NCBI GenBank assembly: GCA_041660025.1
Contig: JBAZXD010000001.1
Coordinates: 305,851-369,850 of the forward strand
Reading direction: 5' to 3'
DNA: 64,000 nucleotides
From: Minisyncoccota bacterium
Lineage (GTDB): Bacteria; Patescibacteriota; Minisyncoccia; Phycocordibacterales; Phycocordibacteraceae
In this document: piece by piece, positions 2,301 to 35,961 of the stretch
Numbering within the stretch: position 1 is the stretch's first letter
Layout: the number at the start of each line of letters is the position of its first letter
Made by a program: the position numbers and the translations under genes
Notes under the pieces: model-generated
Told to the model about the DNA's origin: nothing
The model's input: the letters and a program-made list of their open reading frames with translations, nothing else
Database searches by the model: none

Positions 2301-2586
2301 GATTTTACTCCTTCGAAAGAACGGCGGACCTGTTTAGGAATTGAGTCGGTCAAATGCTTGGCAGTGGGATAGAAAATTCTCTTTCCACCTCCGCTCAAAC
2401 AATAACACCGTAGATTTATTTGTCAAAACCTTTGTTATCCACAATCAGTTCCCGAGACAGATTTTTGGTAAGGAATAAGATACGCTTGTGTAATTCGTAA
2501 ACGTGTGGTATTACAGTCGGTGGATGCGGCTTTACCGTGACTCTGTTTCCTTGTAAAACTCACACAAACGAAAAAGGAGAATACCG

Positions 2587-3621
2587 ATGAAAGCACTTCG
2601 TACAAGCGCGGTTCTCACTGCGTGCATTATTACGATTATGTTCAGCGGACGCATCGCGTTCGGCCAAGATGAGTCGCTGAGCAGTCGGATAGACTCTGCC
2701 TCGACTTCAGCCGAGGAGCAACGGCAAAAGAAAGAAGCGGCGATACCTCGCTGTGATGCTCCGGTCGGCTCGGTAACCATCGCCATGCCGGAACGCAACT
2801 GGTGGCAGCAATATCAGCTGCAATCGCCGGACGCGCTTATCAAGATGTACGTCGCCAAGTCCGGATGCTTTACGCTCGTTGACCGCGGCCGCGGTTTCGC
2901 CATCGCTGAACGCGAACGCGCGCTCGCAAGCGGCGGCAATCTACGGCAAGGATCGAATATCGGCGGCGGACAAATGAAGGCTGCTGATTTCGTCATTACC
3001 CCCGACATCGTAGTGAATAACAACAACTCCGGCGGCAGTGCGATCGGTGCGATCCTTGGGGCCTTTCTACCCGGACCTATCGGGATGATCGCAGGCCAAG
3101 TAAGGATCTCCGACAAGTCGGCTGACGTCACCCTCGCGGTAACGGATGTCCGCAGTTCGGAACAAGTCGTCCTCGCAGAAGGGCAAGCCACGAAGACTGA
3201 TGTCGGGTTCGGCGTTGCCGGTGGCGCGTTCATGGGCGGCGGTTTCGGCGCTGCAGGTGTAGGAAGCTACGCAAACACAGCACTCGGACAAGTGGTTGCG
3301 CTGGCCTACCTCGACGCCTACACGAAGATGGTCGCGAAGATACAAGTTCTCCGGCCGGCCGATGTGGTCGCCGTCGAACCTCCGTCTGCGGTCCAGGCTC
3401 CTCCGCCGCCTCTGGTTACGGCGGAACCGCGAGGAAAGCCTGTCGCAGTGGCGAAGGCAGGTTATCTCTACGATGGCCCTTCGGCAGAGAACCCCTCCAT
3501 CCGCAGTCTGTCTCCCGGTACCATCCTGTACTCGACATCCAAGAAATCGGGTGCGTGGGTGGAAGTAACGGACGACACCGGCAGGAAAGGATGGGTTTTC
3601 GGGAAGCTGCTCTTTCAGTGA
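2587..3621 (+). CDS. CsgG/HfaB-family (curli-secretion-channel-like) protein with N-terminal signal peptide and C-terminal SH3b domain
   Basis: Strong SD (aaaaggagaataccgATG). Hydrophobic signal peptide. The central region aligns block-wise to CsgG (LVDRGRGFAIAERERAL; ADFVITPDIVVNNNNSGGSAIGA; VGFGVAGGAF...GAAGVGSYANT; ALAYLDAYTKMV). C-terminal YLYDGPS...GAWVEVTDDTGRKGWVFGKLL resembles bacterial SH3. Confidence 0.55.
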   Translation: MKALRTSAVLTACIITIMFSGRIAFGQDESLSSRIDSASTSAEEQRQKKEAAIPRCDAPVGSVTIAMPERNWWQQYQLQSPDALIKMYVAKSGCFTLVDRGRGFAIAERERALASGGNLRQGSNIGGGQMKAADFVITPDIVVNNNNSGGSAIGAILGAFLPGPIGMIAGQVRISDKSADVTLAVTDVRSSEQVVLAEGQATKTDVGFGVAGGAFMGGGFGAAGVGSYANTALGQVVALAYLDAYTKMVAKIQVLRPADVVAVEPPSAVQAPPPPLVTAEPRGKPVAVAKAGYLYDGPSAENPSIRSLSPGTILYSTSKKSGAWVEVTDDTGRKGWVFGKLLFQ

Positions 3622-26145: not shown

Positions 26146-29100
26146 TTACGGCGTCGTTGTCGTCGCGCTCGCCGTAGTATCGGTCGTAGCGGTTGTGTCC
26201 GTTGTGGCGGCGGTAGTATCAGTCGTTGTCGTAGTTGTGTCGGCTGTAATGGTTGTATCCGTTGTCGTGGTGGCTGTGTCGGTCGTTACGATAGTCGTAT
26301 CGGTCGTCGTTGTAGTCGTGTCTGTCGGCGGAGTGGTAGTAGCTGTGTCGGTCGTAGTGGTCGCGGTAGTTGAGTCGGTCGTCAATGAGACGTCCGTAAT
26401 GGTAATGGTCGCGTCCACCAAGGTCGTCGACGTGGCTATCGGGGTGATTGATATATCCGTGGTGGATGCCGTTCCCGAAGTGCCCGTCGCCTGAGTGTTC
26501 ACGAATGCCAAGAGCGCCTTCACATCGTCCTTGGTGAGACACTGGTCATCCACACAGATCTTCTCGCTTGCGCGGAATGTCTTTGCAAAGAGGTCTCCGA
26601 TGCCGTTGCTCGCATTCGCGAACCAGCTCGTTATCTGCTCGGTGGAAGAGGCGATTGATATCATCGGCGACCCGCTTGCGCTGCTCACTGCCCCGCTCTC
26701 AAGGGCGGCTACACGGTCCTCAAGCGAGGTCATACGGGTGGTAAGAGCCTCTACCTTGGCGACCAGGGCCTGGGTGGCGGCGAGGTTGAAGGTGGCGAGC
26801 TTGTAGAGGTCCACGCCCAGCCCATCCGGGGAGAGGATTTCGGGGGCGATGGTAGCCGCATCTTCTGCGATGAAGCCCAGGCGGAGTGGGTCCTGCTGGT
26901 CCTCTATTGTATAGCGATAGGTGGCGACCTTGAGATTCACGAGTTGGTCGAGCATATCGTCGGTGGAGGAAGCGTTGAGATAATTGATGTCGGTCTTGGC
27001 CGAGCGGGTGGAAGTGTTGATGAAGCCGGTGGCGCCGATGTCCCCTGCGACCGTGAGGGTGTGGTTCGGGGTGGAAGTGCCGATGCCGATGTTTCCGGAA
27101 GCATCAATCGTGAGTACGGTCGTGGTGCCGAAATTGTTTTGGATAAATGCGGTCGTGAAAGCAATTTCCTGGATGGCCGAAGTCAAAACGGGGACAAATT
27201 TCTCATAATTAAGAGTGTAGTACCCGTCCGGTCCCATCGTCACTGTTTCCGGAAACAGCGGCAATACTTGTTGTGCGATAAAACCGAGTTGGGTTGACGT
27301 TGAAATTGCGAACGTCGGATGCTGGTCATAATAGAGCTGGTTCCATGTGTGGGTTATCGGCTGTATCTGCATAATGCGTGCAAGAGTGGAGCCTAACGGC
27401 TGTATATTCGTCTTTAATCTCTCATCAGATGCCTGGCTCATACACCAAGAATACTGGGTGCTGCAAATGTTTCCGGCCATCGTTAGAAGGCCGCCCATAG
27501 TCATATCAAAGAGATCCGCCGGAGCCGACCAGCCACCGATGCGGAAGACGTTGTCGGAATCAAGCCCCATATTGACGGCGTAGGCTCCAGCGCGATGGAA
27601 GCTCATCGTCGCGCCACTTCCATTATTGGAATATGCCACAAGGGTCTGACATCCTGCACAAGCAGTATCGTTATTAGAAATAAAATTGTTTCCAGCACTC
27701 CATGTTCCCGTCAAGGCGCTGACATTTGTCGCAGTTCCCCCGTTTGCCGGCGCGCTTCCGGCAGTATTGGCATAGCTCACGCTGAAGTTGGATGGGTTCC
27801 ATACATAGTAATTTGAGCCGTCGTTTGAGCCCCAGAGCCACGACGGCTGGCCTCCCTGCCCGCTCCAGTTAAACGGTTTACTTGAAACATTGCCCCACGC
27901 AACGCTATTCGCCGCCCCAGCAGTTAAGCTCGCCGCCGTTCCCGAGAGACCCGCGCCAGAACCATTGAATTGAGAAGCGGAGACAGCACCTGTTGCGGAG
28001 ATAGTGCCTGCCGATGAGACAGTATTAAAATGGCTGTCATTGTTTAGGTCAATATAGTAAGTGGTACTGCTATCAAGGTCATACATATACCGAGAACGAA
28101 GGCTTCCATCCGTCTGCGTGATAAACCCGCCTTGGGCGCTTAGAGTACCGGCAGCCGCGACGGTGCCAGTGAAACTCGCAGCACTTGAAATCGTCTGGCC
28201 GTTGATAGTGCTTGCCGCATTTATAGTACCGGCGCTGTTTATGACGATGTTGCCGTTCGCCGATGAGATGCCGGTGTCGCTCATATACATCGAGCCCGTG
28301 CCGGTGCGGAGCGTCCCCTTCACCCACAGGTTGCTCGCGAAGGTAGAGGTGGCGTTTGTGCCCGTGCCGTTCACATCGATGAAGCCCGCGAAAGTTGAAG
28401 TCGCGCTTTCCGAGGTAGCGGTGAAGTACGGGGCTGAGATTGAAGAAGTGGCAGTGAACCCACTCGCGGTGATGGTGCCGTCGAAGACTGCGTCCCCTGC
28501 GACGGAGAGTTTCGCATACGGACTCGTCGTCCCGATACCGACGTTGCCATTTGATAAAATTTTAACCTGGCTAGTAGAGTTATTAGCCGACAAATCAATA
28601 CCGCCTACTGCGTTTGTGGCAATAGCATAAGAACCGTTTGTGTCAAAATAACGGTCAAGCCCTGTGTAACCAACTTTATTAATGCCATTAATTTGGCCAT
28701 CTGAACGGAAAACCGCCACATAATTTGCTGAATTATTATTCGCTACAGCAAAAACCCTGGCCACTGCGGGCGCGTTTGTAGAGTTAGTTTCTATGTCAAG
28801 TTGATACTGCGGACTCGTCGTCCCGATGCCGACGTTGCCGGTTGTTGTGATGTTCCCTGCGTTGTCTAGTCTCAGTCTCTCTGCTGTTGATGATGCGTCG
28901 TAGAACCTTAATCCGCCGGCAGAATCGGCTCCGGCAATATTTGAAATTTGCCAGAAATGCGCATTGGCTCCTGAATTGTTTAATGACACGGAAAAATCAC
29001 CTGTGTCCGCGAAGGTTGCCGTTCTGGCGCTTAAAAGTCCACCTGAATCAATTGACGCAACAACTGAATCGTTACTGTTTTTCCATTGGGTCAAGTTTGC

Positions 29101-32100
29101 TGTCTGTCCGGCAAAGCCTCTCACTATTAGACCAATATCGGAAACCGCGCCGGAGTTTATTTGTAATTTTGCCCCCGGATTCGCCGTCCCAATCCCCACA
29201 TTCCCGCCGTTCGTGACGATGAAGTTTGTGGCGGTGGAACTCCCGACGACGAATGCGGGGCCCGTGATGCCATTCGGATTCACGCTCAACTGCCCCCACG
29301 GGCTCGTCGTCCCGATGCCGACGTTGCCTTGAGCATCAACAACAGACAAAGCCACATTGCTGCTATTTTGCCATTCAGTCAAATTGGCTGTTTGGGATGC
29401 CGCTGCCCGAACAACAAATGTTTTTACGCCCGTACCACCACTTGTTATAAGAACCCCCGGATTAGTGCCGATGTCACCACGGGGTTCAAAACGAATAGAA
29501 GTTCCATATTCTGTAATAGGAACACTGAGTTTTATATTGCTTGTATGTACACCAAACTGAGGAGAAGAGGCAAGTGACGCATTCGGTGCCCAAAGGCCTA
29601 GAACATTCCATGTCGATCCCTGAATACCTACATAAGCAGTCGTGCCGTCTGTCGTCTTTATGGCCAACTGCCCCGCACTAGTACCCGCGACTGTCCCTGA
29701 CGACAGGGTAAGCAAATTGGTCGGCGCTGCCGTCCCAATCCCCACATTCCCCCCGTTCGTCACAATGAAGTTGGTGGCGGTAGAGGAACCGACGACGAAT
29801 GCGGGGCCCGTGATGCCGTTCGGGTTCACGCTCAACTGTCCCCACGGACTCGTCGTCCCGATGCCGACGTTGCCTTGAATTATCATTCCGTCTGTCGGCG
29901 CGGCAATAGCAGCATATGTGCTACCGATGCTCACGTTACCAGTCACGCCAAAACGACTTCCAAAAGTAGTACCATTGCCAACAATTACCTTTTGGTTGGC
30001 AGTATCATAGCTCATAAAGTAATCAGCACCGTTCCCCAACACTCCTATCTTCCCTACATCTCTTTGTGTGTAATTAAAGTAGGTACTGGCGTCAATATAT
30101 AATAGCTGACCGGTAGATTTTACCCAGCCAGCGATATTCAATTTGTAACCCGCGGGGTCTATCGTCCCAATCCCCACATTCCCCCCGTTTGTCACGATGA
30201 AGTTCGTGGCGGTGGACGAGCCAACAACGAAGGCTGGGCCCGTGATGCCGTTCGGATTCACGCTCAACTGCCCCCACGGGCTCGTCGTCCCGATGCCGAC
30301 GTTGCCGTTATTTAGAATCCTCATCGCTTCCGTCGCGCCGTTGTTCCCCGTCTGGAATATTATATCTGCACCAGTTGTTCCTACTCCACTGGTAGAACGC
30401 AAGGTTAATGGAGTAGCTACTCCATTCCCACCGTAGTAAATACTTCCACCAGTACTTAAAGTAGCTAATACTCCAGAACCCACTTGTAAGGTGATGGGAT
30501 TGTTCACACTATAAAGTTGCATTCCACTTGATGCTCCACCACTAATTGCACTATAAGAACCAAAATAGCCAATGGTAGTTCCAGCTCTTGAAAAGGTCAT
30601 ACTAGGCCCTGTACTACTATTACTCCCGCCATCTATGGTGATGGTTGGAGAACTGGCTATTGCTCCATTCCCAACAGTAAGCAATGTTCCCGGACTCGCC
30701 GTCCCAATCCCCACATTCCCCCCGTTTGTCACGATGAAGTTCGTGGCGGTGGAACTTCCGACGACGAAGGCGGGGCCGGTGATGCCGTTTGGATTCACGC
30801 TCAACTGCCCCCACGGGCTCGTCGTCCCGATGCCGACGTTCGCCCCGTTCCCAAGTATCAAGCTGTTTGATGCGGTAACCTGGGCATTATAGCCAATTGC
30901 GGTGGCGTTGGTCAGATTATTGGTTGAGCCGTTGCCGGCATCGTAACCGATGAAAGTATTATTACTTCCCGTCGTGTTGGAAATTCCGGCTCTCATGCCA
31001 AGAGCAGTATTACCTGTGCCGGTTGTATTACCTCCTAATGCGTTCCAACCAAGCCCCGAGTTCCGTTCTCCGACTCCGGTCGTTAGACTAAGCGCGCTTG
31101 CGCCGACGGCAGTATTATAATTAGCGGTCGTATTCGCCTGCAATGCCGAATTGCCAATTGCAGTATTCTCGCCTCCGCTTGTATTGTATCTTAAGGAACT
31201 AACACCTACTGCCGTATTTGTGGATCCTCCTGCATTACTTTGAAGAGCAACATATCCTATGGCTATATTGGAGTAACCGGTTGTAACGCCAGGTAGAGCA
31301 TAATTACCCAAAGCAATATTTTGTCCTATGCCGGAAGTTGTTAAATTACCGCTAGGAGAACCGATAAAAATATTTTCCGTTCCGGTCTTGTGAATGAAAG
31401 TTGCACCGTTAAATTGGTATGTTGAAGTCGCGTTTACATTAGAAGCAACAATATCCCCGACAACCGAGAGTTTCGCGTACGGACTCGTCGTCCCGATGCC
31501 GACGTTGCCGGAAGCTGAAATACGCATTTTTTCGGAGAGGGACTGAAGTGTAGTCCCTGACGAGCCTGCGTCTGACGTTGAGAATGTAAGAGCTCCTCCC
31601 TCTGCGTTGCCGGTAGCTTTTCCTCCAGCCAAGGTAACACTTGCGCCGGCAATATTTGTACCTGACCCACCTGTCCCGTTAAGAACAAATCCCGAAGGGG
31701 TCGCGCTAATAATCCCTTTCCCAAAATAAGCCGTCGTAATGGCTTGAGTTGAGTCGTCGGCGCCAACGACAAGGGTATTCGCAACATTTGATAATGAACC
31801 CTGCCCGATAGCTATAGCTCCGAGGGCGGTTGCGCTCGCGCTCTGACCTAAAGCAAGAGCCCTTTCGGCAGACGCGACCGAACTTCCTCCAACGGCCGTT
31901 GACAAAGCACCGCTGGCGGATGTGTTGTGGCCAATTGCTGTAGAAATACTGTTAGCGGCTGATGCGTTGTAACCAAATGCAACACTGCTCCCCCCACTGG
32001 CGCTGGCCCCTCTGCCTATAGCAGTACTTAAGCTGGCCGATACTGATGCTCCGTGCCCAACAGCCAAGCTGTCTGCGGAAGTGCCTGTTGTTGATAAGTA

Positions 32101-34137
32101 ACCAACAGCCATTGACCTGTCTCCATTTGCAATGGAACCAAAACCAAACTTTTCACTTTGAGAACCGGAGCCCGGACTCGTGATGTTGCCCGTCACAATC
32201 GCGGCTCCAGCCACAGACAGCAAGTTGTATGGCGAGGTCGTCCCCACCCCCACATTCCCGCTGCCGGTCACCGTGAAGAATGTCGTGGCCGACGAAGAGG
32301 AAGAAATGCGGAATACGTCGCCGGTCTGTCCGGCGACGCTCTGGAGGGTGAGGGTGGTGTTGGTGGTGGAAGCAGAGGCGTCCTGGATGAAGAGCGGGTG
32401 ATTGAATTCGAAGCGCTTGGCGGATTCAGCCGAGTTCCAGGTGAGGAGGGCGTTCGGGGATATGGTGCCTCGCTCAAAGGAGAGATACGCGTTCTCGGTG
32501 TCGGCAGTGGCGTTGTCGGAGTTGATGTTGAAGGTCTCGGCGGTGAGGTTGCCTCCCGTGAGGGTGCCGACGATGGTGGAGGCGTTCACTTCGTTCGCGT
32601 AGATCTTGTCGAAGCGGACGGCGGGGGTGCCGATGTCCACCGTGTCGTCGAGGGCCTGGATGTTGCCGATGATGGTGTTAGAGCCGATGCGGAGGGTGCC
32701 GGCTGATGCGGTGATGTCGTGGTTGCCGGAGCCTGTGAAGGTGATACCGGAGCCTGTGCCGGTGAGGTACGCTCCAGTGCTTCCTCCCACCGAGAAGTTC
32801 CCGGAGAAGGAAGAAGTGGCTGAGGAGTCGGTCGCCATGAAGTTCTGCCCCACGACCTGTCCAGCAATGGAGAGGAGCGAGTACGGACTTGTGGTGCCGA
32901 TGCCGATGTACCCGGTTGTGGAGTCGACGACGAGCTTGTCGGTGCCGACCGTGAGCCCGCCGGCGAAGGTACTCGTGGCGGTGGTGGAGGTGGCAACGAA
33001 GTGTGGTGCGGTGGCGCTCTGGTATGAGGTGAGGGCGCCGGTGGCGATGAGAGAGCCGGAGGTGAAATCGTCGGCGGTGAGGGTATCGAAGGCGCCGCTC
33101 GTGGCAGAGACGCTGGTGCCGTTCGTGAGCGCGCCACCGTCGAAGGTGCCGCCCCTGAAGTCGCCGTTTCGTACGATGAGGTCAGAGAGGTCTTCGATCA
33201 TATTGACCTGCTGGATGGTGGTGACGTTGGTGGCCACCTGGCTCGCAACGGGCTGGATGAGGCTCGAGACCCGCGTGAGGAGCTCGGTGCGGAGCGAGGT
33301 GAGGGACTGGTTGACGAAGTCTTCGGAGACGCCACGGACGATGGTGGAGTAGTAGTTGGTGGGGTTGAGGGTGGTAACGACACGGGTGACGGCAGGAGGA
33401 GTGATGCTTGCCCTGTTGGGTGCGGAACTATCTGATGGGGGGGCGACGGGGAATGCTGGCTCGCTGGTCACAAGCTGAGATTCATCGAACGGCATCGTGG
33501 CCGGTAGTGGATTAGAGACAACGGCGAGGGGCGATGGCTCGTTAAAGATCCCTGCGAGCACATCTTGGGTACGAGAGAAAAGGCCGTTGATAGTTTCGTA
33601 CGTAGCAAGCGCCACCTGTTCCCCGAATGAAAGCGTGGGCTGAGCGGCGGCAACTGCCGCGATTTGTTTCTCGTTATTCGTGAGATGTGGAACGATTGTA
33701 GATTGCGCCGCGACTATTCCCAGCACGACGATGAATGTTGCGACAGAGAATGCGAATACATTGGTGCGCAATGATGCGCTCCAAATATCGAACCGCGACG
33801 CCGAGTGGTGTGAGAGCGAACGGGACAGTTCCGACGGGAGTTGCTGTTGAAGTGGTTTTGTCAGAGCCTTTACCGTGCGACGTACTGGAGGACGGTGCGA
33901 ATGGTATTCAGCCGCGTGGACGCGGGAACGGATCTGCGAAAGTTCTTCCTTGCGTTCCGCCTGCAGGTCAAGGAAGCGGATGAGCGAGTTGCGTTTGATC
34001 ATCCACACCTTGCCAACCTGAACTCCTTCGACTTCGCCGGACCGCGCAAGACGTCGGAGATAGCTCGAAGTATATCCGGAAAGTTTTCCAGCGTACCGAG
34101 TCGTTATCAGATCTTTTTTATATAAATTCGATTTCAT
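26146..34137 (-). CDS. Giant (2663 aa) membrane-anchored surface protein of phage-tail-fibre type. N-terminal HTH, one TM helix, long GNVGIGTTSP-type repeat region, two tandem S74-like intramolecular chaperone/autoprotease modules, coiled coil, Thr-rich tail
   Basis: Single uninterrupted ORF. The N-terminus carries an excisionase/MerR-like HTH (LSGYTSSYLRRLARSGEVEGVQVGKVWMI). A TM helix (FAFSVATFIVVLGIVAA) follows. More than 10 copies of the GxVGIGTTSP(W/Y)xxLxV tail-fibre motif are present. The SDERLKTNI and SAKTDINYL segments, each followed by a GFIAQQ/GFIAED block, resemble peptidase S74. The C-terminus is a TDTT low-complexity tail. Confidence 0.85.
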   Translation of the reverse strand: MKSNLYKKDLITTRYAGKLSGYTSSYLRRLARSGEVEGVQVGKVWMIKRNSLIRFLDLQAERKEELSQIRSRVHAAEYHSHRPPVRRTVKALTKPLQQQLPSELSRSLSHHSASRFDIWSASLRTNVFAFSVATFIVVLGIVAAQSTIVPHLTNNEKQIAAVAAAQPTLSFGEQVALATYETINGLFSRTQDVLAGIFNEPSPLAVVSNPLPATMPFDESQLVTSEPAFPVAPPSDSSAPNRASITPPAVTRVVTTLNPTNYYSTIVRGVSEDFVNQSLTSLRTELLTRVSSLIQPVASQVATNVTTIQQVNMIEDLSDLIVRNGDFRGGTFDGGALTNGTSVSATSGAFDTLTADDFTSGSLIATGALTSYQSATAPHFVATSTTATSTFAGGLTVGTDKLVVDSTTGYIGIGTTSPYSLLSIAGQVVGQNFMATDSSATSSFSGNFSVGGSTGAYLTGTGSGITFTGSGNHDITASAGTLRIGSNTIIGNIQALDDTVDIGTPAVRFDKIYANEVNASTIVGTLTGGNLTAETFNINSDNATADTENAYLSFERGTISPNALLTWNSAESAKRFEFNHPLFIQDASASTTNTTLTLQSVAGQTGDVFRISSSSSATTFFTVTGSGNVGVGTTSPYNLLSVAGAAIVTGNITSPGSGSQSEKFGFGSIANGDRSMAVGYLSTTGTSADSLAVGHGASVSASLSTAIGRGASASGGSSVAFGYNASAANSISTAIGHNTSASGALSTAVGGSSVASAERALALGQSASATALGAIAIGQGSLSNVANTLVVGADDSTQAITTAYFGKGIISATPSGFVLNGTGGSGTNIAGASVTLAGGKATGNAEGGALTFSTSDAGSSGTTLQSLSEKMRISASGNVGIGTTSPYAKLSVVGDIVASNVNATSTYQFNGATFIHKTGTENIFIGSPSGNLTTSGIGQNIALGNYALPGVTTGYSNIAIGYVALQSNAGGSTNTAVGVSSLRYNTSGGENTAIGNSALQANTTANYNTAVGASALSLTTGVGERNSGLGWNALGGNTTGTGNTALGMRAGISNTTGSNNTFIGYDAGNGSTNNLTNATAIGYNAQVTASNSLILGNGANVGIGTTSPWGQLSVNPNGITGPAFVVGSSTATNFIVTNGGNVGIGTASPGTLLTVGNGAIASSPTITIDGGSNSSTGPSMTFSRAGTTIGYFGSYSAISGGASSGMQLYSVNNPITLQVGSGVLATLSTGGSIYYGGNGVATPLTLRSTSGVGTTGADIIFQTGNNGATEAMRILNNGNVGIGTTSPWGQLSVNPNGITGPAFVVGSSTATNFIVTNGGNVGIGTIDPAGYKLNIAGWVKSTGQLLYIDASTYFNYTQRDVGKIGVLGNGADYFMSYDTANQKVIVGNGTTFGSRFGVTGNVSIGSTYAAIAAPTDGMIIQGNVGIGTTSPWGQLSVNPNGITGPAFVVGSSTATNFIVTNGGNVGIGTAAPTNLLTLSSGTVAGTSAGQLAIKTTDGTTAYVGIQGSTWNVLGLWAPNASLASSPQFGVHTSNIKLSVPITEYGTSIRFEPRGDIGTNPGVLITSGGTGVKTFVVRAAASQTANLTEWQNSSNVALSVVDAQGNVGIGTTSPWGQLSVNPNGITGPAFVVGSSTATNFIVTNGGNVGIGTANPGAKLQINSGAVSDIGLIVRGFAGQTANLTQWKNSNDSVVASIDSGGLLSARTATFADTGDFSVSLNNSGANAHFWQISNIAGADSAGGLRFYDASSTAERLRLDNAGNITTTGNVGIGTTSPQYQLDIETNSTNAPAVARVFAVANNNSANYVAVFRSDGQINGINKVGYTGLDRYFDTNGSYAIATNAVGGIDLSANNSTSQVKILSNGNVGIGTTSPYAKLSVAGDAVFDGTITASGFTATSSISAPYFTATSESATSTFAGFIDVNGTGTNATSTFASNLWVKGTLRTGTGSMYMSDTGISSANGNIVINSAGTINAASTINGQTISSAASFTGTVAAAGTLSAQGGFITQTDGSLRSRYMYDLDSSTTYYIDLNNDSHFNTVSSAGTISATGAVSASQFNGSGAGLSGTAASLTAGAANSVAWGNVSSKPFNWSGQGGQPSWLWGSNDGSNYYVWNPSNFSVSYANTAGSAPANGGTATNVSALTGTWSAGNNFISNNDTACAGCQTLVAYSNNGSGATMSFHRAGAYAVNMGLDSDNVFRIGGWSAPADLFDMTMGGLLTMAGNICSTQYSWCMSQASDERLKTNIQPLGSTLARIMQIQPITHTWNQLYYDQHPTFAISTSTQLGFIAQQVLPLFPETVTMGPDGYYTLNYEKFVPVLTSAIQEIAFTTAFIQNNFGTTTVLTIDASGNIGIGTSTPNHTLTVAGDIGATGFINTSTRSAKTDINYLNASSTDDMLDQLVNLKVATYRYTIEDQQDPLRLGFIAEDAATIAPEILSPDGLGVDLYKLATFNLAATQALVAKVEALTTRMTSLEDRVAALESGAVSSASGSPMISIASSTEQITSWFANASNGIGDLFAKTFRASEKICVDDQCLTKDDVKALLAFVNTQATGTSGTASTTDISITPIATSTTLVDATITITDVSLTTDSTTATTTTDTATTTPPTDTTTTTTDTTIVTTDTATTTTDTTITADTTTTTTDTTAATTDTTATTDTTASATTTTP
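26149..26465 (-). repeat. Degenerate tandem repeat encoding a Thr/Asp-rich C-terminal tail
   Basis: DNA shows reiterated gtcgt(a/t)g.. units; protein reads TDTTATTDTT.. for ~105 aa. Confidence 0.6.
29190..30850 (-). repeat. Four near-identical ~140-bp intragenic DNA repeats at ~540-bp spacing, encoding identical 46-aa cassettes
   Basis: Repeated DNA blocks recur at about 29.2-29.33, 29.74-29.88, 30.17-30.30 and 30.70-30.85 kb, e.g. ggactcgtcgtcccgatgccgacgttgcc and attccccccgttcgtcacgatgaagtt.gtggcggtgga. Each encodes GNVGIGTTSPWGQLSVNPNGITGPAFVVGSSTATNFIVTNGGNVGIGT. Confidence 0.8.
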
Positions 34138-34559
34138 TCTTAAAGCCGAAACTAATCAGATAATAACTGATTATTTCCACTTTCTATAAATCCTATAAGT
34201 GGATAACTTCTTGGCCACGCGAGGAGATACTTTTTGCTCTGGCACCGAGGCTTCTCAGAGGGTCAAAACAACTAGTACGAAACGCTATCCGCATACCCCT
34301 TTTGACCTCGAAATGGAGTGTCTCGGCAGAACCTTTCGTAATTGCCTTTATATACGCTGTTTAAATGCTCTATACGCCCCCTAAAGAGGCTTTTCTGGTA
34401 AATATCCGAGAGAACATCTTGCGGTATAGTGTTGTATTGCTGATATTGGATCTTGCCGAAAAAAGTAGTCCGGAGAAATTATGTCTATCTGGTGCTTAAA
34501 TGCCTATCACGTCTAGCCGAGACAAGAAAGCCAATGTTTTGGCGTATGGAATAGCAAAA

Positions 34560-34592
34560 TAAAAACACCCTCGCGGGTGTCTTTATTTTCAA
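34560..34592 (-). terminator. Rho-independent terminator downstream of the DEAD-box helicase gene
   Basis: On the minus strand: acacccgcgagggtgt hairpin followed by TTTTATTTT. Confidence 0.5.
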
Positions 34593-34602
34593 AGAGGGTT
34601 GA

Positions 34603-35961
34603 TTATCGCTCCGAGACGAAGGTCAGCGCCTTACCCTTCATTGCGGCGCGGCCGGTGCGGCCGATGCGATGGACGTAATCCTCGTAGGTCGAGGGGAGGT
34701 CGTAGTTGATGACGTGCGAGACGGCGGGGATGTCGATGCCGCGCGCCGCGACATCGGTCGCCACGAGCACACTCACCTTCCCCGCTTTGAAGGCCTCTAG
34801 CGCGCGCTGGCGCGCGCCTTGGGTCTTATTGCCATGGATGCTTTCGGCGTGGATGTGCAGCCGGGAGAGCGCCTTGGCGAGCTTCTCGACGCCGAACTTC
34901 GTGCGCCCGAAGACAAGCACTTTGCTAAAATCGCGATCCTTCAGCATCTCAGAGAGCACGTCGAACTTATCCTTTCCGCGTGGAATGCGGACGACATCTT
35001 GATCAACGCTCGACGGCGTGTCGCGCGTCTTGACCGAGATGATGACCGGACTCGAGAGAAAGTCACCAATGAGCTTCTCAATATCCCTTCCCATCGTCGC
35101 TGAGAAGAAGAGCGTGTGGCGCTCCTTACGCATCTTGGAGAGAATCATCCGCATATCGTCGATGAATCCCATATCGAGCATACGGTCCGCCTCGTCGAGA
35201 ACGACCGTGCCGAACTCAGTGAGCACAAGCGCCTTGCGCTCCATCAGATCCTTGAGGCGCCCGGGAGTGCCGATGACGAATGCCGGATCGTGCCGGAGCT
35301 GGGAGATCTGCGGGCCGATGTTCGCCCCGCCGACCGCGACCATACCGCGGAAGCCAAGCCCCTTGGCAAAGCCTGCGAGTTCCTTCTCGATCTGCACTGC
35401 GAGTTCACGCGTGGGCGCCATGATAAGGATGCGCTCGCCCTTCTGCTTCATCACCTTGTCGATGAGCGGAATGAGGAATGCCGCCGTTTTCCCGGTCCCC
35501 GTCTCGGCGAGCCCGACGACGTCCTGTCCGAGAAGTGCGTGCGGGATAGCCTTGTCCTGAATAGGCGTCGGCGACTCATACTTACGCGCGATGATATTCG
35601 CCTTCAGATGCGCATTGATATCGAAGTCTGAGAACTTGTGCTCCGGAACGAATACCGGCTCCTCAGTCGTGACGACTGTCTTGTTCATAAACTTCGAGAT
35701 CTCGGCCTCCGTCTCGCCGAAAGAGCCGAAGCCTCCGCGACGCGCCGGGGCGCGACCGCGACTGCCGCCGCTAAACCCGCCGCGTGCGCCATAACCACCC
35801 TTAGACGGGAAACGGGAACTGCCGCCGCTACGGCCGCCAAAACGGCTCGGACCCGTGCTCCCGTGCCCGGACGGGCGCGGCGAATACGGGCGATTACTAT
35901 CGCTTCGAGAACCTCCTGAAGAACTTCCTGCTGATTGATGATTCCAACGCCCTACTTGCAT
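34603..35961 (-). CDS. DEAD-box ATP-dependent RNA helicase with N-terminal RG/SG-rich extension
   Basis: Q-motif (F.D..L......Y..PTPIQ), AETGTGKT, VLDEAD, SAT and HRIGRTGR motifs. ~90-aa Gly/Arg/Ser-rich N-terminus; an alternative start at MNKTVV (35688) is possible. Confidence 0.85.
   Translation of the reverse strand: MQVGRWNHQSAGSSSGGSRSDSNRPYSPRPSGHGSTGPSRFGGRSGGSSRFPSKGGYGARGGFSGGSRGRAPARRGGFGSFGETEAEISKFMNKTVVTTEEPVFVPEHKFSDFDINAHLKANIIARKYESPTPIQDKAIPHALLGQDVVGLAETGTGKTAAFLIPLIDKVMKQKGERILIMAPTRELAVQIEKELAGFAKGLGFRGMVAVGGANIGPQISQLRHDPAFVIGTPGRLKDLMERKALVLTEFGTVVLDEADRMLDMGFIDDMRMILSKMRKERHTLFFSATMGRDIEKLIGDFLSSPVIISVKTRDTPSSVDQDVVRIPRGKDKFDVLSEMLKDRDFSKVLVFGRTKFGVEKLAKALSRLHIHAESIHGNKTQGARQRALEAFKAGKVSVLVATDVAARGIDIPAVSHVINYDLPSTYEDYVHRIGRTGRAAMKGKALTFVSER

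Follow-up and report, generated by a model that had tools for sequence, protein, structure and literature searches.

The stretch of DNA analyzed here (the window) comprises 64,000 nucleotides of contig JBAZXD010000001.1 from a Minisyncoccota bacterium, and our subject is the gene for a giant fiber protein on its minus strand (26146–34137), together with the promoter ahead of it. The gene encodes 2,663 residues, arranged from the N-terminus as a helix-turn-helix (HTH) domain, a basic helix, a linker, a hydrophobic segment, a tail-fiber-like ectodomain, two Peptidase_S74 domains and a Thr-rich tail. An initial annotation had flagged positions 33640–34137, which are codons 1–166 of this single uninterrupted open reading frame (ORF), as an HTH fused through one transmembrane (TM) helix to an extracellular fiber. 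Its description of the anatomy of this one protein was correct, but it missed that the protein belongs to a very large family in Patescibacteria and that the gene has a rigidly conserved promoter.

The N-terminal domain, residues 9–57 (33967–34113, minus strand), is predicted to be an excisionase/MerR-type winged HTH composed of a strand, a helix, a recognition helix and a hairpin wing. For the window sequence itself the family assignment is borderline: Pfam HTH_17 (PF12728) matched residues 11–57 with an E-value of 2.7e-4 and 21.6 bits, under the gathering cut-off of 27, and TIGR01764 ("excise") matched with an E-value of 0.013 and 15.9 bits, under its cut-off of 28.8. At the family level, however, HTH_17 membership holds, in that relatives with the same module passed the cut-off (P0128 with 39.2 bits, P0096 with 27.7, P0012 with 27.6 and P0025 with 27.5) and a precomputed PF12728 assignment was listed for most of the homologue hits. 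AlphaFold2 (AF2) predicted a strand-helix-helix-hairpin-helix fold for residues 10–58 (strand at 10–12, helices at 13–20 and 24–33, strands at 38–41 and 44–48, and a helix from 49 onward), which is the HTH_17 fold, with block-mean values of the predicted local distance difference test (pLDDT) of 90–96 over residues 11–70. When this model was compared with the PDB by Foldseek, the best match was Pukovnik Xis (4j2n; TM-score 0.72–0.74, root-mean-square deviation 1.6 Å over 48 residues), and there were further matches to Tn916 Xis, TraN, BldC, RdfS, GlnR and BmrR. The E-values were modest (about 0.02–0.06) because the domain is small; the credible matches were all DNA-binding winged helices of one type. 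A sequence search of the HTH against the PDB gave no match, and only the fold comparison worked. The sub-cut-off profile match, the predicted fold and the Foldseek matches together bear out the excisionase/MerR-type HTH that was originally proposed.

The last helix of the HTH is extended by a conserved basic helix (residues 58–80; 33898–33966, minus strand) that is apparent in both the AF2 model and the alignment. Residues 1–80 are near-invariant among orthologues that are only ~50% identical overall, which argues that the observation of an HTH module is not due to chance. Across 39 diverse members of the family A16, G21, Y22, Y26, W45 and Y78 are invariant, and K14, D25, R29, L30, R32, G42, S51, L52, F55, Q59, K63, R74 and E77 are conserved in at least 90%; the recognition-helix and wing positions among these are G21, Y22, Y26, R29, L30, R32, G42 and W45. 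The conserved basic residues of the recognition helix and wing, along with the repeats at the promoters of the family's own genes described below, point indirectly to DNA binding by the HTH.

The module is followed by a variable Ser/Arg/Pro-rich linker (residues 81–126; 33760–33897, minus strand) that is probably disordered, with pLDDT below 50, and that could not be aligned among orthologues; its Ser/Arg-rich composition is as first described. Residues 127–145 (33703–33759, minus strand) are the only strongly hydrophobic stretch in the protein, with a Kyte-Doolittle value of 2.32 over 19 residues relative to 1.47 for the runner-up. Ahead of this segment there are 24 Lys/Arg and 10 Asp/Glu residues, and in the 100 residues behind it there are 3 and 9, respectively. 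The charge bias and the lone hydrophobic segment favor a bitopic protein with a single TM segment and its N-terminus inside, in agreement with the N-in/C-out topology given in the initial annotation. The TM fusion needs qualification. The hydrophobic segment is present as claimed, but it may span the membrane in the precursor only, in view of the fact that it reads as a signal peptide when aligned across 135 family members: a basic n-region (L-R-S-H/Q) is followed by a 13-residue h-region, Gly/Ser, and A (79%)-x-A/S/T (87%), with a conserved V-I-P-Q-L-A directly behind the A-x-A. Such an n/h/c layout with small residues at −3 and −1 is that of a type-I signal peptide, cleaved by signal peptidase I. 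In the window protein the corresponding pattern is V142-A143-A144 followed by Q145, a candidate cleavage site, although the n-region, of ~126 residues, is folded and the hydrophobic stretch has the length needed for a TM helix. Residues 127–145 may thus serve as a signal-anchor, or they may supply the h/c region of a signal peptide that is later removed; both readings stand, and permanent tethering is unproven. If cleavage by signal peptidase is real, the mature fiber would be unattached to the HTH and a stub of ~145 residues would remain, and free-standing HTH-linker-TM proteins of 125–160 residues in the same superfamily share the shape of the predicted stub.

The intergenic region ahead of the fiber gene is 465 nt long in the window (34138–34602) and 344–849 nt elsewhere. 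At orthologous loci the sequence directly ahead of the ATG was conserved almost base for base, whereas the remainder of the intergenic region could not be aligned; in the window region and in the corresponding gaps of L014–L067 (between the fiber gene and the partner gene described below) the DNA is AT-rich (25–48% GC), without credible ORFs, and the last 74–84 nt alone are conserved. The leader layout is a TTATCCAC(A/T) box, a fixed gap, a TAnnnT hexamer, ~20 nt and the ATG. Among 36 distinct leaders the 74 nt ahead of the ATG aligned nearly gap-free, with the box and T-A-n-n-n-T invariant, and another 80 metagenomic loci from the wider family showed the same layout. In the window the −10 hexamer is TATTAT (34160–34165, minus strand), and across the leaders it varies among TATTAT, TATAAT, TAACAT and TAAACT, with T1, A2 and T6 constant. 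The upstream box, TTATCCACT (34198–34206, minus strand; alignment of relatives), ends 32 nt ahead of the −10; it matches the DnaA-box consensus at 8/9 positions, and the form found in most relatives, TTATCCACA, matches it at 9/9. In 475 kb of loci TTATCCACA was observed 67 times versus 3.6 expected, and 71 of 102 boxes found with a relaxed pattern preceded the start codon of a family gene, in most cases by 69 or 78–79 nt. The gap from box to −10 was 32 nt for 38 of the 68 distinct boxes and 41–42 nt for 20 of them, that is, the two spacings are one helical turn apart, which argues for a constraint at the level of DNA. The −35 of the family promoter is weak, and the distance of 32 or 41–42 nt to the −10 rules out the upstream box as a −35 element. 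The box is probably bound by an activator, for which DnaA and the HTH itself are candidates.

Flanking the −10 on both sides is an inverted repeat, GGAAATAATCAG / CTGATTAGTTTC (34148–34178, minus strand; window scan and leader alignment), that is a candidate operator. It occurs as a single copy in the 64 kb, with 0.04 expected by chance. The corresponding repeat in the main family of relatives, CCGRAAT...ARTTCGG, was found in 31 instances, 23 of which end exactly 9 nt ahead of the ATG. The fiber leader lacks a Shine-Dalgarno sequence, although the same genome uses one elsewhere (AAGGAG ahead of the gene at 2587). Small genes resembling the partner gene have a box-N32-TATAAT/TATACT arrangement that ends 3–13 nt ahead of the ATG, and because the hexamer adjoins the start codon in these genes we take it to be the −10, with leaders that are short or absent. 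An RNA hairpin in a 5'-untranslated region (UTR) was also considered. Rfam covariance models gave no match near any gathering score over 34050–34650, and RNAalifold found no consensus structure in the leaders, for which single-leader folding z-scores were −1 to −6. Against the hairpin, besides this lack of a consensus, were that its "loop" would hold the invariant TAnnnT, that L065 keeps TAnnnT without the stem, and that paralogous genes have box-N32-TATAAT only 3–13 nt ahead of the ATG. The repeat and box are therefore treated here as a promoter plus operator and not as a 5'-UTR structure.

Several further sequence features were observed at or near these promoters. A second family-type promoter lies in the window at 2435–2481 (plus strand), with a perfect TTATCCACA, a 32-nt gap, TAAGAT, and CCGAGA and AATTCG motifs near the hexamer; it precedes a gene (2587–3621) for a signal-peptide protein with CsgG-like and SH3 domains and no HTH, which may be a co-regulated envelope gene. 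Extra boxes are present in L010, where an inverted TGTGGATA lies 8 nt past the box (2502–2540), and in L025, which has a second direct TTATCCAC (1728–1765). In L027, L028, L032, L041, L042, L044 and L060 an insertion of 21–22 nt between leader and ATG repeats TATCC (GGTTATCCGACATCTATCCACACCTTATCAGACATG), so that there are three TATCC-type direct repeats 10–12 nt apart and the protein start becomes MYP.... An element just ahead of the ATG in most main-family loci (C/T-TATCCGAC) resembles the upstream box. Adjoining the box in the window, at 34207–34226 (plus strand), is a terminator-like hairpin on the opposite strand that is probably a chance match.

To define the family, a profile built from approximately the first 200 residues of six orthologues was run against 1.84 billion cluster representatives. 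This exhaustive search was needed, as searches for homologues by word index had yielded no more than 5 and 12 short fragments; for retrieving loci, the alignment of 39 sequences was too divergent a query. The profile matched 1,440 representatives with an E-value of 1e-3 or lower and 273 with 1e-10 or lower, and the family features described here are those of the best 150 of the 1,440 matches. In these proteins, which range from fragments to 7,214 residues, the module is at the N-terminus or within ~70 residues of it. The named homologues are all Patescibacteria, with the labels Patescibacteria, Parcubacteria, Paceibacterota and Minisyncoccia, the taxonomic labels of metagenome-assembled genomes being approximate. 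Nearly all members of at least 250 residues have one hydrophobic segment, at about residue 105–135, or at 160–230 where the HTH is duplicated. Two to four tandem copies of the HTH ahead of the membrane segment were seen in P0003, P0009, P0011, P0019, P0022, P0023 (7,214 residues), P0039 and L067 (from 3001); L067 has two HTH copies and one box, and L025 has two boxes and one HTH. The initial annotation had pointed out that an interpretation as a secretion or anchor signal would gain if the same N-terminal module recurred on many unrelated exported proteins. Among the 150 closest relatives, all 96 of the 96 members of at least 600 residues were linked by ectodomain similarity, which argues that the module is not a generic anchor on unrelated cargo, and the ectodomains are mosaic across the family. 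NCBIfam held no model for the giant protein or for the partner protein described below. As previously suspected, no functional description of the HTH-TM-fiber architecture was found by full-text searches of the literature or in papers on Patescibacteria that were checked directly, and the searches likewise gave none of its promoter. The window protein is thus a local member of a large, Patescibacteria-wide family for which we found no published description.

The module also occurs in two kinds of smaller paralogous protein. Free-standing HTH-linker-TM proteins of 125–160 residues, nearly without an exported part, were found in L078, L079, L081, L083, L085, L086 and L089. Ahead of their genes there is a perfect palindrome, ATCTCGAGGGTCGAGAT, in L078, L083 and L089 and a close variant of it in L081, ending 9–38 nt ahead of the ATG, and related TCGAGAT repeats were present at the other loci of this type. 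These small proteins look like membrane-anchored autoregulators, and their near lack of an exported part argues for an independent function of the module at the membrane. The second kind is encoded by what we refer to as the partner gene, located 0.35–0.85 kb upstream of most main-family fiber genes (L022:1541–2341, with an equivalent in most of L010–L069); its product of 226–296 residues has an HTH_17-like head (MDEILIEEKKYVSSKRAAKITGYAKDYIGQLCREGRV), an acidic linker and a C-terminal TM segment. The partner-gene leader, TTGTGCACA...AGCCGAGATATGGCTATACT...ATG, was found in 44 instances, and partner genes carry the repeat AGCCGAGATATGGCT; there was no partner gene within the 64-kb window. The half-sites of the paralogous subfamilies share a CGA(G/A)AT flavor with the CCGAAAT...AATTCGG of the giant family. 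Each HTH-TM subfamily thus appears to carry operator-like symmetry at its own promoter, a pattern typical of autoregulated HTH proteins.

Beyond the hydrophobic segment, residues 146–2663 (26149–33702, minus strand) are the predicted extracytoplasmic fiber, rich in Thr, Gly, Ser, Ala and Asn and with 12 copies of the motif G-N-V-G-I-G-T. PHROG tail-spike and tail-fiber families matched along its length, and together with the Peptidase_S74 matches they support the giant fiber ectodomain of ~2,500 residues that had been proposed. The window protein belongs to Peptidase_S74, which Pfam matched in two stretches with an E-value of 2.3e-20 and 73.1 bits relative to a cut-off of 22, and the Ser...Lys self-cleavage motif is present. 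The first S74 intramolecular-chaperone domain (residues 2237–2299; 27241–27429, minus strand) has the motif S2237-D-E-R-L-K, and the ASDERLK self-cleavage motif is identical in the window protein and in the tail fiber of PDB entry 8jov. A further Ser...Lys motif, S-T-R-S-A-K (residues 2376–2381; 26995–27012, minus strand), falls within a PHROG 17524 match that spans residues 2362–2465, and in our reading of the sequence it would belong to the second S74 stretch. After the tandem S74 stretches (SDERLK and STRSAK; 26146–27429, minus strand) come a Cys pair and ~90 residues of low-complexity, Thr/Asp-rich tail, an unusual ending by comparison with phage fibers, which stop at the chaperone. With S74 chaperones, fibers trimerize from the C-terminus and then shed the chaperone; by analogy, we expect the window fiber to form a trimer and, once folded, to lose its C-terminal chaperone by self-cleavage. 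Nearer the membrane, residues 301–611 (32305–33237, minus strand) are 90.7% identical to P0011 and 61–63% identical to P0050 and P0083, although the head of P0011 is of a different, tandem-HTH subtype. The sharing of this region under different heads is evidence of module shuffling among family members, and residues 301–611 are also a candidate for a conserved attachment region.

The fiber gene lies among housekeeping genes (DEAD-box helicase, RmuC, RecR, DnaB, CysRS, CorA, Mur ligase, PBP, MraW and class-I LysRS). The order RmuC-helicase-[fiber gene]-RecR-DnaB-CysRS is common to the window and Parcubacteria bacterium GW2011_GWA1_56_13 (L001), in which the neighboring genes are 80–94% identical to those of the window but residues 1–200 of the fiber protein only 59%, with the remainder diverging further; despite this divergence the HTH and the promoter stay fixed. 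Given conserved neighbors and a diverged fiber, the gene is chromosomal, syntenic and fast-evolving. A prophage origin was ruled out by the housekeeping neighbors in conserved synteny and by the finding of no relatives of the fiber family in IMG/VR. At the end of the upstream DEAD-box helicase gene, a terminator scan identified a terminator-like hairpin with a T-run (34565–34580, minus strand; the scan listed the stem on the plus strand, and the T-run behind it reads on the minus strand), which suggests that the fiber gene, behind its 465-nt intergenic region, forms its own transcription unit.

The reading that we prefer, at somewhat less than even confidence, is that the HTH regulates its own gene from the membrane by acting on the promoter. 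Our best clue to the DNA target of the HTH is this promoter, which is rigidly conserved across the family, and binding there is favored mainly because the HTH-TM subfamilies each have an operator-like repeat of their own. The hydrophobic segment sends the remaining ~2,500 residues out of the cell, and in this proposal the HTH would be functional in DNA binding, kept at the cytoplasmic side of the membrane with its own promoter as target. Translation of the long message takes minutes, and the HTH would emerge from the ribosome before any other part of the protein; it could therefore act in cis, binding the operator-like repeat that covers the −10 and the transcription start and so throttling new initiation. 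How long such feedback lasted would be set by the fate of the HTH, which might stay tethered, persist as a signal-peptide stub after signal-peptidase cleavage, or be degraded. The upstream box would act as a separate activator site. An elaboration that we regard as very doubtful is that secretion itself is counted: each exported fiber would leave behind one HTH-signal-peptide stub, which, either tethered or released by signal-peptide or site-2 proteases, would bind its own −10 operator, so that fibers were counted one for one, and through its DnaA-type box the promoter would be coupled to the replication cycle. Were this true, it would represent a new class of regulator in which the n-region of a signal peptide is a transcription factor. 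Should both the signal-peptide reading and DNA binding hold, a new regulatory logic is a real prospect.

A number of points weigh against autoregulation. The link between the HTH and any conserved DNA element is one that we infer, and since the box of the family is exactly the DnaA-box consensus it may be owned by DnaA or another factor. Box-N32-TAnnnT is also found ahead of the CsgG-like/SH3 gene without an HTH (2435–2481), and not all members have a clear inverted repeat: in L065 and L008, for example, it is weak or absent. In the main family the symmetry is limited to outer CCGAA/TTCGG arms ~25 bp apart, which is awkward for a simple dimer, and a trimeric fiber is mismatched to a two-fold operator. 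When an RNA stem of the repeat was forced, it was 78% paired versus at most 52% for slid controls, which leaves a role in RNA with some residual plausibility. If the signal peptide is cleaved, the lifetime of the stub may be too short for function. Lastly, the view of the family from which we argue is that of the best 150 of 1,440 matches.

The signal-peptide profile of the 135 members, A (79%)-x-A/S/T (87%) behind an n-region, h-region and Gly, with V-A-A followed by Q in the window, would also suit an export pro-domain. On this view the signal peptide would be of type I, cleavable, and have an n-region of unusual length, and the HTH would be a cytoplasmic handle with no regulatory role, with the mature fiber unattached. 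The handle might fix the N-in orientation, delay or target the export of giant cargo, or hold the nascent chain near the gene, and the true attachment module, as in phage fibers, could be residues 301–611, where the ectodomain is best conserved. We consider this explanation unlikely, given that a few lysines would be enough for orientation and yet ~80 residues are near-invariant, including typical DNA-contact positions; the module also occurs alone, without cargo, in the proteins of 125–160 residues, and it is tandemly duplicated in some members. The improbable suggestion that the HTH serves as a scaffold, either by RodZ-like docking of the fiber base to a cytoplasmic partner (for which the main-family HTH-acidic linker-TM protein is a candidate) or by non-specific binding to the nucleoid to position fibers, draws on the presence of the partner gene, with its paralogous HTH and C-terminal TM segment, 0.35–0.85 kb upstream of most main-family genes and on the precedent of RodZ for an HTH used for protein contacts. 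A scaffold, however, leaves the rigid family-specific promoter elements unexplained, as well as the retention of basic residues in the recognition helix and wing, and the subfamily of the window has no partner gene within the 64 kb.

Signaling in the opposite direction, as in a ToxR/CadC-style bitopic one-component regulator, would have binding, tension or loss of the fiber alter the oligomerization or proteolysis of the HTH and switch on a regulon upon host contact. The bitopic N-in topology with a DNA-binding head is what such a regulator would have, the constant head and the variable, mosaic ectodomain are as expected of a host-contact organ, and the second box-type promoter in the window, which drives a cell-envelope gene, hints at a regulon. 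Nevertheless, we think this equally improbable: no sensor-like juxtamembrane domain is recognizable, the disordered linker of 45–70 residues would be a poor conformational relay, the connection would be lost if the signal peptide were cleaved, and there is a single copy of the palindrome within the 64-kb window. S74 cleavage is external and distant, and the coupling of surface events to DNA binding through S74 processing that was suggested in the initial annotation is implausible, as the S74 domains are outside and more than 2,000 residues away and cleavage frees the C-terminal chaperone rather than the HTH. It is hardly credible that the architecture is an artefact of a wrong start codon, or of a small regulator gene fused to a fiber gene by sequencing or assembly error. 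The ATG does lack a Shine-Dalgarno sequence, but the uninterrupted architecture recurs in independent assemblies, with an MKSNL or MDxxxEKNLI start right after the conserved leader, and the window ORF has no stop codon or frameshift.

Autoregulation through the HTH, if true, would be a compact link between production of a surface organ and transcription in a minimal cell. Patescibacteria (CPR) account for a large part of bacterial diversity, are attached to other cells, have very few recognizable regulators and are almost uncharacterized at the molecular level. The family described here joins a mosaic, fast-evolving fiber, probably the main host-contact organ, to a DNA-binding domain and a highly rigid promoter. 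The box-N32/42-TAnnnT signature can be used to find co-regulated envelope genes in CPR genomes, and the DNA sites are directly testable.

Of the families compared, the window protein belongs to none except, at the family level, HTH_17 and Peptidase_S74. With phage tail fibers and tailspikes that have a C-terminal S74 (the endosialidase type; PDB 8jov and 9b45) it shares the chaperone domain, the identical ASDERLK, PHROG similarity along the shaft, and the combination of a mosaic, fast-evolving distal part with a conserved proximal part. Unlike those fibers, it is encoded among chromosomal housekeeping genes and has an HTH and membrane segment in place of the N-terminus that attaches to the baseplate. 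The HTH has the same fold as Xis, RdfS, BldC and TraN (TM-scores of 0.65–0.74), which are soluble proteins of 50–120 residues that bind DNA as monomers lined up on repeats; by analogy, such an arrangement would suit the three heads of one trimeric fiber. We know of no protein of this type that is joined to a membrane segment or an exported protein. MerR regulators have a C-terminal coiled coil for dimerization, an effector domain, and an operator inside a 19-bp spacer between −35 and −10. The window protein had no match to the MerR Pfam family, and it differs in that the helix behind its HTH carries many charges and leads into a disordered linker, and in that the repeat lies across the −10 instead of occupying the spacer. 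The family box TTATCCACA is identical to the consensus DnaA 9-mer but, unlike the clusters of DnaA boxes at origins, it occurs singly, with a fixed spacing to a −10 hexamer.

Among membrane proteins, RodZ has the same order of N-terminal cytoplasmic HTH, linker, single TM segment and extracytoplasmic domain. Its Xre-type HTH binds MreB and not DNA, its periplasmic domain is small, and it illustrates that an HTH in this position need not bind DNA. There is no sequence relationship between RodZ and the window protein, in which no Pfam match to an Xre-type HTH or a RodZ domain was found. MYRF is, to our knowledge, the only well-studied protein in which a DNA-binding domain, an S74/ICA domain and a membrane segment occur together. 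The likeness is that both chains combine a DNA-binding domain with a phage-type, self-cleaving S74/ICA trimerization domain and a membrane segment. The MYRF chain runs DNA-binding domain-ICA-TM, so that the ICA is cytoplasmic and self-cleavage frees the DNA-binding domain (PMC3742440, PMC3742443). In the window protein the order is HTH (9–57), TM (127–145) and S74 (2237–2299 and ~2376 onward), the types of DNA-binding domain are unrelated, and self-cleavage would be unable to free the HTH because the S74 domains are outside and more than 2,000 residues from it.

The closest parallel in topology is with ToxR, CadC and TcpP, which show that DNA binding is possible for a protein held in the membrane. 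These proteins have an OmpR-type winged helix (Trans_reg_C), one membrane segment and a small periplasmic sensor, and the window protein resembles them in its N-terminal cytoplasmic DNA-binding domain, one membrane-spanning segment and C-terminal extracytoplasmic part. The ToxR/CadC-like designation in the initial annotation is therefore retained for topology but not for domain type, as there was no match to Trans_reg_C in the window protein even at E ≤ 1. The differences are that the head is of the HTH_17/excisionase type, that the outside part is a tail-fiber-like 2,500 residues, and that the membrane segment looks cleavable. If autoregulation is true, the fiber family would add a new type of domain, and a new logic, to the membrane-bound transcription factors represented by ToxR and MYRF.

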